Shown piece after piece: positions 2,865-10,182 of a stretch of 12,001 nucleotides of DNA. The notes beneath the pieces are model-generated. The model searched no databases and was not told the DNA's origin. It worked only from the letters and a program-made list of their open reading frames with translations. This DNA comes from a virus. Lineage: Duplodnaviria; Heunggongvirae; Uroviricota; Caudoviricetes. The stretch's first letter is position 1; every line of letters begins with the position of its first letter. Location: the IMG/VR virus record IMGVR_UViG_2711768053_000012, positions 1-12,001 of that record. The stretch is one strand, 5' to 3'. The translations under genes were made by a program, and so were the position numbers.

Positions 2865-2893
2865 AATCTAAAAGTATTTAGTTTTATAGTCAA
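2865..2893 (-). promoter_or_regulatory. pL-like leftward promoter with overlapping operator palindrome
   Basis: On the minus strand: -35 TTGACT (plus 2888-2893), 17-nt spacer, -10 TAGATT (plus 2865-2870). Overlaps the imperfect palindrome AATCTAA-AAGTAT-TTAGTTT at 2865-2884, which has the same 7-6-7 architecture as sites next to the cro-like gene. Confidence 0.45.
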
Positions 2894-2910
2894 GGAAAAT
2901 CTAAATTAAT

Positions 2911-2938
2911 TTAAAAAAAGGTCGGCATAACCGACCTT
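2911..2938 (-). terminator. Rho-independent terminator downstream of the repressor gene
   Basis: Minus-strand hairpin AAGGTCGG-ttatg-CCGACCTT followed by a 7-T run, immediately after the repressor stop at 2960. Confidence 0.6.
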
Positions 2939-2959
2939 AAGTTCAAGAACATGGCAGGG

Positions 2960-3607
2960 TTATAGGTTGAACTGTACACCTTTTGCTACGGCAACAATTT
3001 TACACTCTGGCGTAAGCAAGGATGATTGATAGCGCGGATTGAGAGGGCTTAAATACACAAGTTTTCCATCAATAACTAATTTTTTTATAGTCATAGACGG
3101 TTCATTTGTAAGAGGATCTGGAACTATTACAGCGACGATACTGCCATTTTTATAACTTTCTCCTGGTCTTAGGATCACAGTGGCACCAACTGGGATACTT
3201 GGCGACCCTGAGGGGTTATGCATAGTGTCATCAGGCATTGAAACGGCAAAATCACCTTCCACTACATCAAAGAATGTGGTGATCCTATCGACATTTCCCA
3301 TTGTTTTCTCTCCTTCTAAGATTAGGAAAGAAATCGCGTCACCCCACGAAAAGTAGGGGATCTTGGTGCCTGGATTGCTCTGCACAAAAGATAGTTCAGG
3401 AGACGATACTCCATACAGGAGATAGGACTCAGTAGTTCCTAATGCTTGGGCTAACTTACTTAGAGCTTTGCTGCCGGGTTCGTTTAGATCTTTCTCCCAG
3501 TACCCTATAGTAACCCCAGTCACGCCTGAAAGCTTACCCAGTTCTACTTGGGTGAGTCCCTTATCTTTTCTGAGTTTCTTAAGCCTGATGCCAAGGCTTT
3601 CCATCAT
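2960..3607 (-). CDS. CI-like prophage repressor (N-terminal HTH_XRE, C-terminal S24 LexA-type self-cleaving peptidase)
   Basis: 215 aa. N-terminal HTH (LTQVELGKLSGVTGVTIGYWE). C-terminal S24 signatures: Ser in AVSMPD and Lys in IKKLVIDGKLVYLSPLNPRYQ, the latter closely resembling lambda CI [27 protein letters not shown] Shine-Dalgarno upstream of the ATG at 3607. Divergent from the cro-like gene. Confidence 0.9.
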   Translation of the reverse strand: MMESLGIRLKKLRKDKGLTQVELGKLSGVTGVTIGYWEKDLNEPGSKALSKLAQALGTTESYLLYGVSSPELSFVQSNPGTKIPYFSWGDAISFLILEGEKTMGNVDRITTFFDVVEGDFAVSMPDDTMHNPSGSPSIPVGATVILRPGESYKNGSIVAVIVPDPLTNEPSMTIKKLVIDGKLVYLSPLNPRYQSSLLTPECKIVAVAKGVQFNL

Positions 3608-3623
3608 TTTCTCCCGCGAGTTG

Positions 3624-3690
3624 AATATAAATTATTTTAGATTGCATTGACCTAAAAAAAATTATCCTGTAATCTAAAAATACTTAGATT
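3624..3690. promoter_or_regulatory. Immunity-region operator/promoter (OR/pR-like): two 7-6-7 palindromic operators and a rightward promoter
   Basis: Perfect palindrome AATCTAA-AAATAC-TTAGATT at 3671-3690 and near-perfect AATATAA-ATTATT-TTAGATT at 3624-3643. Candidate pR: -35 TTGACC 3647-3652, 17-nt spacer, weak -10 TAATCT 3670-3675 overlapping the operator. Sits between the divergent repressor and cro-like genes. Confidence 0.5.
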
Positions 3691-3703
3691 TTAGGAGAGT
3701 GAA

Positions 3704-3931
3704 ATGCGAGTTGATGAACTTGTTCAGTTTTTTGGCTCTGTTCAGAGGGTCGCTGATTTTTATGGGATAACCCGCGAAGCTATTTACATGTGGCGTAAGC
3801 GCCCCGGTGAAATAGTTCCGAAAGGGAGAGCTGCGGAAGCTGCTGCATACTCCAAGGGAAAATTATCTTTGAACCCAGAGCTTTACAAAAAGAAGGATAC
3901 CACTCAGAGCGAAAGGAAGAGTGATTCATGA
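3704..3931 (+). CDS. Cro-like HTH regulator (75 aa)
   Basis: GGAGAG Shine-Dalgarno 6 nt upstream. The motif ELVQFFGSVQRVADFYGITREAIYMWRKRPGEIVP parallels P22 Cro (VIDHFGTQRAVAKALGISDAAVSQWKEVIPE, from memory). First gene rightward of the repressor. Confidence 0.8.
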   Translation: MRVDELVQFFGSVQRVADFYGITREAIYMWRKRPGEIVPKGRAAEAAAYSKGKLSLNPELYKKKDTTQSERKSDS

Positions 3932-4353
3932 AAATCAAGCATGAGCACATCCGCATGGCGATGAATGCCTGGGCGCATCCGGATGGTGAAAAAGTTCCGG
4001 CAGCTGAAATAACCCGGGCTTATTTTGAGCTGGGTATGACGTTCCCGGAACTGTATGACGACAGCCATCCGGAAGCCCTGGCTCGCAATACTCAGAAAAT
4101 TTTCCGCTGGGTGGAGAAAGACACCCCTGATGCGGTTAAAAAAATTCAGGCGTTGTTACCAGCGATCGAAAAAGCAATGCCACCTCTGCTGGTGGCCCGA
4201 ATGCGCAGCCACAGTTCAGCCTATTTTCGGGAGCTGGTGGAGACGCGGGAACGACTGGTGAGAGATGCTGATGATTTTGTCGCAGTGGCGATCGCTGGTT
4301 TCAATCAGATGAATCGTGGTGGTCCGGCGGGAAATGCCCTGGTGATGCACTAA
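3928..4353 (+). CDS. ydaT: YdaT-like protein (CII functional analogue family), 141 aa
   Basis: Start overlaps the cro-like stop (ATGA). N-terminus MKIKHEHI and C-terminal ...VMH match my recollection of Rac/CP-933P YdaT; it occupies the cII position after cro. AGGAAGAG Shine-Dalgarno upstream. Confidence 0.6.
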   Translation: MKIKHEHIRMAMNAWAHPDGEKVPAAEITRAYFELGMTFPELYDDSHPEALARNTQKIFRWVEKDTPDAVKKIQALLPAIEKAMPPLLVARMRSHSSAYFRELVETRERLVRDADDFVAVAIAGFNQMNRGGPAGNALVMH

Positions 4354-5324: not shown

Positions 5325-5366
5325 GTGTTGATTTGAGGTTATGAAGTTATTTTCTCAGGAGAGTTT

Positions 5367-7916: not shown

Positions 7917-8127
7917 AAACGGTTTGCGGGAAAAGGAGAGTTAAGTAGAATTGCTGCGGGTGCTTGAGGCTATCTGCCTCAGGCATGAACACCAAAAGGC
8001 AGATAGAGAAAAGCCCCAGTTAACATTACGCGTCCTGCAAGACGCTTAACATTAATCTGAGGCCCAATCTATGTCTCACAAATGTAGGTTAGCCTCTTAC
8101 GTGCCGAAAGGCAAGGAGAAGCAGGCT

Positions 8128-8283
8128 ATGAAGCAGCAAAAGGCGATGTTAATCGCCCTGATCGTCATCTGTTTAACCGTCATAGTGACGGCACTGGTAA
8201 CGAGGAAAGACCTCTGCGAGGTACGAATCCGAACCGGCCAGACGGAGGTCGCTGTCTTCACAGCTTACGAACCTGAGGAGTAA
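8128..8283 (+). CDS. hokD: Hok/Gef family type I toxin (51 aa)
   Basis: Product MKQQKAMLIALIVICLTVIVTALVTRKDLCEVRIRTGQTEVAVFTAYEPEE matches my recollection of E. coli HokD (RelF) and aligns closely with Gef/Hok. AAGGAGA Shine-Dalgarno 8 nt upstream of the ATG at 8128. The track ORF starts at an upstream in-frame ATG (8071) giving 70 aa. The upstream leader is highly structured and a terminator follows. Confidence 0.85.
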   Translation: MKQQKAMLIALIVICLTVIVTALVTRKDLCEVRIRTGQTEVAVFTAYEPEE

Positions 8284-9060: not shown

Positions 9061-10182
9061 GTGTTTAACGGTACTAATTTAAGACTTGCTCGTCTGTATC
9101 ACGAGCTATCTCTGGAGCAGGTTGCTGAGAAGGTTGAAAAAACACGCCAGTATGTACAGCGACTGGAGTCTGGTTCAGCTACTCCATCCCCAGAGCTTAT
9201 AAATAAATTAGCCGAGGTTTTGCGCGTGAAGCCCGCCTTTTTCGAAGGGCAGGAACATTCTCCTGTTAATGAAGAGATTGTACATTTTCGTAAACGCGCC
9301 TCGACAAGGATGTCAACGAAGCTATCAACACTCGCTAAGGCTGAGTTTTATCGTCGTTTTATTGATGTATTTGAAGATAACCTTAATTTGTCACCTGTTC
9401 GATTTCCTGAATTTCGTGTCCATACACAAGAAGATATCGAGCGAGCGGCAGAAAAATGTCGTATTGAGTGGGGCTTAGGCTTTGGCCCAATTGAAAATAT
9501 GACTCGCCTTGCCGAGAAACTTGGGGCGTTTGTTACTTCATTTGACTCCGTTTCGGATGAAGTAGATGCACTGTCTGTTCCTCTACGAAGGCCTTTTATT
9601 GTTCGAAATACAGCTAAAAATTCACCTTGTAGGCAACGCTTTGATATTGCTCATGAGGTTGCCCATTTGATTCTTCATGAAGGAATTTCTACTGGGGATA
9701 GATTAACTGAATCCCAGGCAAACCGCTTTGCCTCTGCTCTGTTGCTTCCCAGAACGTCGATGGCGAAATATTTTCCAAGACCTGTGGGGGGGAGGATAAA
9801 TTGGCAGGGACTAAGCCAATTTAAGTTGACATGGAAAGTAAGTAAGGCTGCCATTGTTTACAGGGCTCATCAATTAGGACTTTTGACTGATGAGCAGTAC
9901 AGAACTGCATTTATGGGGTTGAAACGGAAAGGGGAAGCTATTGATGAAAAAGAAGATTATCTAATCCCTCATGAGCGTCCTGAGTTATTCCGTCGGGCTT
10001 TATCGTTTTTATTTGAAGAGTTAGGATACGACCCACAGCGTATAGCTGATGAAATGGATATAGAAGTGGACATTTTTTATGAGTTAGTAGGAGATGATCT
10101 TCCTGCGGTTCATGAACTGCCAGGAAGTGGTGATGTTGTTTCACTACAATCTTACCGAACTCTTAGAGGCAAAATTCACTAG
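9061..10182 (+). CDS. Fused HTH_XRE DNA-binding domain plus ImmA/IrrE-family (DUF955/COG2856-type) HExxH zinc metallopeptidase, 373 aa
   Basis: GTG start at 9061, first start after an in-frame stop and 10 nt after the upstream gene's stop. N-terminal HTH (LSLEQVAEKVEKTRQYVQRLESGSATPSPELINKLAEVLRV); HEVAH (HExxH) at about 9652-9666 inside FDIAHEVAHLILHE, typical of ImmA/IrrE peptidases; about 120-aa C-terminal extension. A terminator follows immediately. Confidence 0.8.
   Translation: MFNGTNLRLARLYHELSLEQVAEKVEKTRQYVQRLESGSATPSPELINKLAEVLRVKPAFFEGQEHSPVNEEIVHFRKRASTRMSTKLSTLAKAEFYRRFIDVFEDNLNLSPVRFPEFRVHTQEDIERAAEKCRIEWGLGFGPIENMTRLAEKLGAFVTSFDSVSDEVDALSVPLRRPFIVRNTAKNSPCRQRFDIAHEVAHLILHEGISTGDRLTESQANRFASALLLPRTSMAKYFPRPVGGRINWQGLSQFKLTWKVSKAAIVYRAHQLGLLTDEQYRTAFMGLKRKGEAIDEKEDYLIPHERPELFRRALSFLFEELGYDPQRIADEMDIEVDIFYELVGDDLPAVHELPGSGDVVSLQSYRTLRGKIH

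Follow-up and report, generated by a model that had tools for sequence, protein, structure and literature searches.

Two palindromic copies of a 20-bp motif lie between a leftward repressor gene and a rightward cro-like gene of a Caudoviricetes genome, in a stretch of 12,001 nucleotides hereafter referred to as the window, and they raise the question of whether they constitute operators, which proteins would read them, and to which immunity system they would belong. According to a first-pass annotation of this DNA, the pair represents the operators of an immunity region organized as a lambda-like bistable switch, with a spacing that would fit cooperative repressor binding. In this work, we present a comparative analysis of the window with ten related loci, with characterized phages and with complete Escherichia coli genomes. 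The two palindromes are part of a set of five sites, three of which (OR2, OL1 and OL2) had been overlooked, and we consider it highly probable, on the basis of sequence comparisons, that the five correspond to putative P22/lambda-type operators for the repressor and Cro of a lambdoid prophage immunity cassette. The immunity type appears uncharacterised, and the operator system is the known P22/lambda type, of which this is an ordinary variant.

Genes of the immunity region

The repressor and cro-like genes are divergent and separated by a spacer of 99 bp, as in lambdoid phages (Table 1). The repressor gene begins at 3607, the first ATG, in the open reading frame listing; we adopted the second ATG, which gives a product of 214 aa, the length of database cluster P0001, and relatives begin MES... 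The repressor is 30-32% identical to P22 C2 and about 32% identical to the 434 repressor (cI), and its N-terminal domain matches the solved P22 C2 domain with an E value of 3e-7; other repressors of the phage collection reach at most about 35% identity among the matches listed, which are a sample down the ranking. A literature search combining AATCTAA/TTAGATT with repressor and operator retrieved only unrelated papers and none on the motif, and a search by the names of two phage records that carry the region, vB_EcoM-606R7 and vB_EcoS-689R5, found nothing. Given the low repressor identity and the lack of a paper in these searches, we treat the region as an uncharacterised immunity type.

Downstream of cro, the ydaT gene is followed by a gene for an O-like replication initiator, and the leftward operon past the repressor gene includes DUF1391 (YdfA-like) and YdfC-like genes. 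YdaT is known from footprinting to recognise the operator TTGATT-N6-AATCAA, which in prophage CP-933P is found at the end of ydaS (PMC9986795). The window has a predicted site of this kind at the end of cro, which agrees with the YdaT operator OM in 17 of 18 bases, in its syntenic place and in the adjoining ydaT gene; this assignment concerns 3921-3938 only. In a search against Rfam at the gathering threshold, sok (7958-8133) was the only hit and nothing was detected near the operators; DicF was not found in the window by the same search, though related prophages show a dicB-type left operon.

Table 1. Genes, operator sites and transcription signals of the immunity region, by position in the window.
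Feature	Position	Strand	Description
OL1	2865-2884		AATCTAAAAGTATTTAGTTT; one mismatch; left arm supplies the leftward -10 (TAGATT) when read on the minus strand
Leftward early promoter (PL-like)	2865-2893	-	TTGACT (2893-2888), 17-bp spacer, TAGATT (2870-2865); predicted by promoter scan
OL2	2898-2917		AATCTAAATTAATTTAAAAA; three mismatches; directly upstream of the -35 of the leftward promoter
Putative intrinsic terminator 3' of the repressor gene	2918-2938	-	9-bp stem with 5 G-C pairs, then TTTTT
CI/C2-like repressor gene	2960-3604	-	HTH_3 and Peptidase_S24; 214 aa from the second ATG
OR3	3624-3643		AATATAAATTATTTTAGATT; one mismatch; shares bases with the candidate -10 for leftward transcription of the repressor gene
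Candidate -10 of the leftward repressor-maintenance promoter	3624-3629	-	TATATT, outer arm of OR3
Rightward promoter (PR-like)	3647-3675	+	TTGACC (3647-3652), 17-bp spacer, TAATCT (3670-3675)
OR2	3649-3668		GACCTAAAAAAAATTATCCT; weak central site; 7/8 core positions of CTAA-N6-TTAG; overlaps the rightward -35 and spacer
OR1	3671-3690		AATCTAAAAATACTTAGATT; perfect palindrome; covers the -10 and predicted start of the rightward promoter, about -12 to +8
cro-like gene	3704-3931	+	75 aa; P22_Cro family, E 1.2e-9; N15 Cro (PDB 2hin), E 2.8e-4
Predicted YdaT site	3921-3938		GTGATTCATGAAAATCAA; one mismatch (17/18) from TTGATT-N6-AATCAA; at the cro stop/ydaT start
ydaT gene	3928-4353		3C4R, about 97% identical (printed alignment); 8BT1, E 7e-81

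The palindrome pair and the five-site set

The letters at 3671-3690 (AATCTAAAAATACTTAGATT) read AATCTAA-AAATAC-TTAGATT, a perfect 7-6-7 inverted repeat as originally annotated, and those at 3624-3643 (AATATAAATTATTTTAGATT) read AATATAA-ATTATT-TTAGATT, the sole mismatch of this copy, C to A at position 4, being likewise as described. Apart from the repeat at 3671-3690, no perfect 7-N6-7 inverted repeat occurs in the 12-kb window, where the pattern with up to three mismatches gives four matches versus 0.69 expected, all four located in the two non-coding stretches flanking the repressor gene. As the spacer has just 27% GC, it was shuffled separately as its own null, using 20,000 dinucleotide-preserving shuffles of the intergenic stretch alone. 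Of these local shuffles, 1.7% contained a perfect 7-6-7 repeat, whatever its sequence, and 27% one with up to one mismatch, but a perfect repeat together with a second copy (up to one mismatch) was never obtained (0/20,000). The paired palindromes are real, and composition does not explain them. Both the intergenic regions and the operator motif are AT-rich, which calls for caution with the operator reading.

The position of the perfect site with respect to the rightward signals was also read correctly in the first-pass annotation: it overlaps a conserved -10 (TAATCT, 3670-3675) and ends 2 nt before the cro ribosome-binding site (AGGAGAG, 3693-3699). The pair is joined by the weak OR2 between the two copies, and by OL1 and OL2, which bracket the leftward promoter past the repressor gene and terminator. 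Measured between centres, neighbouring sites are 25 bp (OR3-OR2), 22 bp (OR2-OR1) and 33 bp (OL1-OL2) apart, and 806 bp separate the right cluster from the left. The set resembles lambdoid operators in that imperfect palindromes of a common consensus occur repeatedly, neighbouring sites being separated by about two helical turns (OR2 is weak), and in having extra copies at the leftward early promoter past the repressor gene. Conversely, the 47-bp distance between the two annotated copies does not support cooperative binding as originally proposed, since it is equivalent to about 4.5 helical turns and places OR3 and OR1 on opposite sides of the double helix. Cooperative binding would more likely involve adjacent sites, by analogy with P22, where the corresponding distances are 25 and 23 bp.

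The rightward promoter is conserved and overlaps both OR1 and OR2, and its transcript would start near 3682. The candidate leftward repressor promoter is placed on the basis of its sequence and of the analogy with the left promoter, whose outer operator arm doubles as the -10. Its candidate -10 (TATATT) is good, but the -35 at the matching position (GGTCAA, 3647-3652) is poor, suggesting that the promoter may depend on an activator. On the minus strand, starts are predicted near 3617 and 2858.

Conservation among related loci

The comparison set consisted of ten loci with repressors 42-68% identical to that of the window, from Salmonella, Yersinia, Symbiopectobacterium, Arsenophonus, Phlomobacter, Xenorhabdus, a 208-aa enterobacterial family and others. 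All ten display a spacer of roughly 100 bp containing three right-hand sites with the core CTAA-N6-TTAG in the same relative positions, including a syntenic OR1 (10/10). Counting the window, 10 of 11 loci have OR3 and OR2 25 bp apart, the exception being L003 (30 bp), and the OR2-OR1 distance is 22 or 24 bp. The rightward promoter TTGAYN-17-TA(A/T/G)nAT has an exact 17-bp spacer in each of the ten relatives, and its -10 is a perfect TATAAT in L040 and L003. On the left side, OL1 is kept in seven loci (L037, L038, L040, L041, L042, L004 and L005), and syntenic OL2 sites are located 33-36 bp from OL1 in relatives; most relatives have OL1 and OL2 around the leftward promoter, L036 and L006 being without a clear OL. 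The leftward promoter arrangement is repeated in L037 (TTGACA-17-TAGATT), L038 and L040.

A matrix was derived from 38 sites of the relatives, with no window sites (consensus AATCTAAATTAATTTAGATT), and its top five scores among about 12,000 window positions fell at 3624, 3671, 2865, 2898 and 3649, a result that is not fully independent because the relatives' sites were picked with a core pattern derived from the window. By relatives-only matrices, OR1 ranks first or second in the window. When the matrix was built without any OR2 sites, OR2 of the window ranked sixth with a weak score of 3.5 bits, which is reached by 1.2% of shuffled spacers. The equivalent of OR2 is strong in L037 and L005. 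That TTA(T/G) is kept inside the promoter spacer argues that OR2 is something beyond promoter sequence; part of the conservation of OR2 could nevertheless come from its role as -35 and promoter spacer.

Variation at closer range follows the sites as well. Across four E. coli alleles (86-100% identical overall), the operators vary at 5 of 60 positions and their core at 1 of 24, with OR3 invariant, and 14 of the 39 other intergenic positions vary in the same alleles. The proteins predicted to read the sites display a similar pattern, as the recognition helices, GV[TS]GV[TAS][IV]GYWEKD in the repressor and T-x-E-A-[IV]-[YS]-[MTQ]-W in Cro, hardly vary over the loci while the rest of each protein diverges. 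At the level of sequence, these near-invariant helices match the invariant CTAA/TTAG core. The 'evolutionary code' described for Cro (PMC6649833) says little here: the Ala at helix position 3 fits the A at half-site position 5, but the binary code does not cover the Arg at position 1 or the Met at position 6. Judged from the comparison, the sites track the repressor and Cro and not YdaT, because L038, L040 and L042, which have no ydaT gene, keep the operators.

Comparison with known immunity systems

The closest layout was found in P22, whose operator consensus (ATTTAAGATATCTTAAAT) has TTAAG half-sites around a 4-bp centre, with Val33 of the repressor packing on the TpA step of TTAA (PMC5175364). 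In the P22 genome, OR3 (AGTTAAGTCATCTTAAAT), OR2 (ACTAAAGATTCCTTTAGT) and OR1 (ATTTAAGTGTTCTTTAAT) have centres 25 and 23 bp apart, compared with 25 and 22 bp in the window. In both, the rightward -35 (TTGACT in P22, TTGACC in the window) overlaps OR2 and co-aligns; OL1 is followed by the leftward -35, the two OL1 sites co-aligning; and a divergent gene for a helix-turn-helix and S24 repressor faces a cro of the P22_Cro family. The sites share the same register, CTAAR-N4-YTTAG in the window versus TTAAG-N4-CTTAA in P22, with a 4-bp centre and half-sites one turn apart. For instance, OR1 of the window reads CTAAA-AATA-CTTAG in the P22 register, so that the first half-site base changes from T to C and the TpA step is kept. 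The window repressor aligns without gaps to the N-terminal domain of C2 and keeps the Val on TpA, whereas the recognition helix differs (TGVTIGYW versus SNVAISQW in P22). With C in place of T in the half-site and no fixed G, P22 and the window type are expected to be heteroimmune. Unlike P22, just two left-hand sites were found in the window, the CII function is assigned to a YdaT protein instead of C1, and the repressor has no counterpart to the Ser and Ala-Gly self-cleavage residues of C2. Membership in the homoimmune P22 group was considered and discarded, as the half-site is ATCTAAR compared with ATTTAAG-N4-CTTAAAT, the helix differs and the repressors are 30-32% identical. The '7-6-7 palindrome' of the first-pass annotation is, as far as the letters indicate, better described as a P22-type operator of different specificity.

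The window also resembles lambda in its three-part right operator over predicted back-to-back promoters, in a weak middle site beside the -35 of the candidate repressor promoter (centred at about -41), and in a second operator cluster at the leftward promoter, which in the window is 806 bp away; further, the repressor and lambda CI have homologous C-terminal domains (E 1e-5). In contrast, lambda sites span 17 bp, are symmetric about a base pair and are unrelated in sequence, and lambda cI is leaderless, whereas the repressor gene of the window carries a Shine-Dalgarno sequence. The operators of phage 434 are 14-bp ACAA-N6-TTGT sites, and thus have the 4-6-4 geometry of the CTAA-N6-TTAG core; they differ in the bases recognised and are not known to have a conserved outer AAT/ATT flank such as that of the window sites.

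Prophage CP-933P of E. coli O157:H7, which encodes PaaR2, YdaS and YdaT (PMC8630535, PMC9986795), has essentially the same YdaT module, with the YdaT site at the cro/ydaT junction, and a lambdoid layout with a leftward dicB-type operon. Nevertheless, its repressor is PaaR2, associated with a toxin-antitoxin pair, and its Cro is of the YdaS type, unlike those of the window. The footprinted 18-bp repeats, bound by PaaR2 and YdaS, have the consensus GTTTAGTAA (PMC8630535, PMC9986795). These operators were considered as candidates owing to the common ydaT module and were rejected, because the motif is not AATCTAA and the repressor and Cro families differ. On sequence grounds, the window combines the ydaT module of CP-933P with a different immunity cassette, the joint being at about 3920.

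Cassette boundaries and distribution

Homology with other prophages delimits the region on both sides. The left joint (2857-2866) corresponds to the outer edge of OL1, where homology stops: about 2,500 E. coli genomes, including the Rac region of K-12, match the left side only up to this point, and so do 8 of 10 phage records, the other two carrying the whole cassette. The right joint is at 3919-3923, from which prophages with other cro types match only rightward. The two joints, at about 2860 and 3920, enclose the sites along with the repressor and cro genes, so that all are passed on jointly; the homology pattern indicates that OL, repressor, OR and cro (about 2865-3920) behave as a single inherited unit, a classical immunity region. 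The earlier identification of immunity-region operators is thereby sustained by the divergent repressor/P22_Cro context, the promoter overlap, the recurrence in ten relatives, the low variation and the inheritance as a cassette, with the correction that the left copies had been overlooked.

Matches covering at least 80% of the region were found in 474 of 5,426 complete E. coli genomes (about 9%), including O157:H7 strains, and the region occurs at 98% identity in the deposited phage records vB_EcoM-606R7 and vB_EcoS-689R5. Strain JP538 harbors a copy 99.7% identical, in a complete-looking lambdoid prophage next to ompW.

Alternative explanations

That the symmetry arose by chance or from promoter composition, out of -10-like hexamers and A/T tracts, or that the sites belong to a host nucleoid protein, is very unlikely in our assessment. 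The low GC content and the shuffle frequencies of single repeats given above (1.7% perfect, 27% with up to one mismatch) speak for such an origin, as does the fact that the outer arms double as the -10-like hexamers TAGATT and TATATT. Five copies of one motif, however, occur only in the stretches on either side of the repressor gene, the combination of a perfect repeat and a second copy did not occur in the shuffles, motif and spacing are conserved across genera while neighbouring bases drift, and the sites co-align with the experimentally established operators of P22. As for a host protein, the IHF consensus is WATCAR-N4-TTR, which the motif does not fit in a comparison by eye. Highly improbable, in turn, is that the perfect palindrome acts as an RNA hairpin (3665-3696) that sequesters the Shine-Dalgarno sequence of cro and controls translation, rather than as a protein-binding DNA site. 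The RNA of 3662-3700 does fold to -11.3 kcal/mol (z = -3.45; 0/200 shuffles as good), with an extended stem that pairs UCCUG with UAGGA of the ribosome-binding site, but any perfect DNA palindrome folds well by construction, and a start near 3682, inside the palindrome, would leave the 5' arm of the hairpin untranscribed. Moreover, the OR3 copy does not fold (-0.1 kcal/mol), the OL copies are at a promoter and not at a ribosome-binding site, and the extended pairing is lost in a 92%-identical O157 allele and in L037.

Binding of the sites by YdaT, encoded just downstream, in place of the repressor and Cro would be suggested by the similar letters and 6-bp gap of its known site (PMC9986795) and by the closeness of the window protein to the characterised ones (Table 1), yet we regard it as exceedingly improbable. 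The arms of the two motifs are everted relative to each other (AATCTAA...TTAGATT in the operators, TTGATT...AATCAA for YdaT), and the YdaT pattern with up to two mismatches is found only at 3921-3938 and 5328-5345, neither of which coincides with the five sites. Besides the relatives that keep the operator set without a ydaT gene, prophages with the same ydaT and other cro genes diverge left of 3919. We therefore retain the reading of the five sites as probable operators for the repressor and Cro.

Self-cleavage residues of the repressor

In an alignment with lambda CI, the window repressor has Thr at the position of Ser149 (DDTM versus GNSM) and keeps the catalytic Lys, and in an alignment with P22 C2 and the sister clade, Ala-Ile replaces the Ala-Gly scissile bond, which is Ala111-Gly112 in lambda. 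The protein thus has neither the Ala/Cys-Gly site nor the Ser-Lys pair of the SOS-inducible, self-cleaving LexA/CI repressors. Among 119 homologues, 106 have Ser with Ala-Gly, and all members of the window's clade (11/11) have Thr with a non-Gly residue. Within this clade, with hosts including E. coli, Salmonella, Yersinia, Symbiopectobacterium, Sodalis and Arsenophonus, every member has Thr at the Ser position and one of Ile, Thr, Met or Val in place of the scissile Gly, with the catalytic Lys and the remainder of the fold retained. The strict conservation of DDTM across genera does not look like simple decay.

As the canonical self-cleavage residues are missing, lambda-style SOS induction should not be assumed. 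The lambda-like bistable switch of the first-pass annotation is a reasonable analogy that may not extend to the mode of induction. Tentatively, and with somewhat less than even confidence, we propose that the repressor may not undergo RecA-stimulated self-cleavage and that the switch may be flipped by a non-SOS route, with the operators as its read-out. An antirepressor, another protease or a Thr-based cleavage at a new site would be candidates for such an induction. No annotated antirepressor was found in the 41-kb prophage stretch of JP538, from the integrase into the tail genes. LexA boxes, which would hint at an antirepressor under SOS control, were limited in the window to one-mismatch matches (8 versus 3.8 expected), none of them convincing. 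The apparent loss of the self-cleavage residues could prove of greater consequence than the operators themselves.

Proposed switch

In the model that we propose, dimers of the repressor and of Cro would bind the 20-bp sites through the core CTAAR-N4-YTTAG, with half-sites one helical turn apart. The repressor on OR1 and, cooperatively, on the weak OR2 would block the rightward promoter and keep cro and the early genes off, and from OR2, centred some 41 bp upstream of the presumed leftward start, it could stimulate its own weak promoter. Occupation of OR3 by Cro or by excess repressor would turn repressor synthesis off. OL1 and OL2 would control the leftward early promoter likewise, and the right and left clusters, at their distance of 806 bp, could loop. 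YdaT, as the CII equivalent, would act at 3921-3938, the cro/ydaT junction, to establish repressor synthesis. The sequence comparisons show the five sites with their statistics, their conservation, their overlap with promoter hexamers, their behaviour as a cassette and the layout common to P22; from these we infer the identity of the binding proteins, the order of occupancy, cooperativity, activation and looping, and our confidence in the individual steps (the role of OR2, the repressor promoter, cooperativity and looping) is lower than in the identity of the operators.

With five sites, three predicted promoters and the cassette boundaries, these results provide a map for this immunity type, which predicts homoimmune prophages. 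They also illustrate how one P22-type layout may be re-specified by a one-base change of the half-site, from TTAAG to CTAAR, together with an altered recognition helix. The apparent loss of the self-cleavage residues bears on the induction of these prophages, some of them in pathogenic strains, and if the non-SOS proposal holds true, a widespread P22-type switch, present in 474 of 5,426 E. coli genomes, would be induced by another route.

Features flanking the immunity cassette

The site at the cro/ydaT junction differs at one position from the footprinted YdaT operator TTGATT-N6-AATCAA (PMC9986795), and it is exactly here (3919-3923) that homology to prophages carrying other cro types begins. 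The neighbouring gene encodes YdaT, the CII equivalent, a protein with about 97% identity to PDB 3C4R; its match to 8BT1, which is the characterised YdaT of prophage CP-933P, has E 7e-81. On the left side, the leader is common to about 2,500 E. coli genomes at 94-100% identity, the K-12 Rac region included, and is recognisable in part at the Arsenophonus, Symbiopectobacterium and L041 loci, which encode related repressors; an Rfam search of it gave no match, and its fold prediction was unremarkable (z = 0.36).

Features mapped in and around the immunity cassette
Feature	Position	Strand	Remarks
Leader, roughly 100 nt	2760-2862	leftward transcription	leftward promoter to DUF1391 (YdfA-like) gene
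Repressor gene	2960-3604	-	
In-frame ATG pair	3604-3607	-	start of repressor ORF
Extended OR1 palindrome	3665-3696		13-nt arms TCCTGTAATCTAA / TTAGATTTTAGGA
YdaT-operator-like site	3921-3938		GTGATTCATGAAAATCAA; spans cro stop / ydaT start
sok antisense RNA	7958-8133	+	Rfam RF01794, 121.7 bits
373-aa ORF	9061-10182	+	N-terminal helix-turn-helix, metalloprotease-like region

Further to the right, in the early-right region of the prophage, sok indicates the presence of a toxin-antitoxin locus of the hok/sok type. The 373-aa ORF, which matches PHROG 2439 ('transcriptional regulator') and PHROG 87 ('metallo-protease'), is an ImmA/IrrE-like fusion; since it has no annotated counterpart in phage vB_EcoM-606R7, bearer of the same immunity cassette, a connection with repressor inactivation is unlikely.

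Repressor start and OR1 palindrome

Of the two ATGs that open the repressor ORF, the second (3604) is better spaced from the GGAG Shine-Dalgarno sequence and yields a 214 aa protein, the length of the database cluster; the repressors of its relatives begin MES. Unlike λ cI, the gene is not leaderless. The palindrome of OR1, the predicted operator between the repressor and cro genes, can be extended to arms that take in part of the cro Shine-Dalgarno sequence, with a predicted fold of -11.3 kcal/mol as RNA; this extension is kept neither in the O157 allele nor in locus L037.

Self-cleavage residues and operator specificity

In the repressor, the catalytic Lys is retained, the catalytic Ser149 of λ CI is replaced by Thr (DDTM), and the Ala-Gly cleavage site of P22 C2 and of a sister repressor clade reads Ala-Ile (WGDAISF). 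Among 119 homologues compared, Ser and Ala-Gly occur together in 106, and Thr with a non-Gly residue in all 11 members of the clade of this repressor. Both replacements, and the pairing of these residues across the homologues, suggest that RecA-stimulated self-cleavage may be non-canonical or absent.

The sister clade (L042 and proteins P0014-P0120) is a 208 aa repressor family very common in enterobacteria, found on hundreds of contigs from Salmonella, Klebsiella and Citrobacter, and retains the canonical GDSM and Ala-Gly. Its recognition helix is nearly identical to that of the repressor studied here, and its predicted operators likewise carry the CTAA-N6-TTAG core, with G/C at the outer arm positions in place of A/T. 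Immunity specificity may depend on this outer-arm difference.
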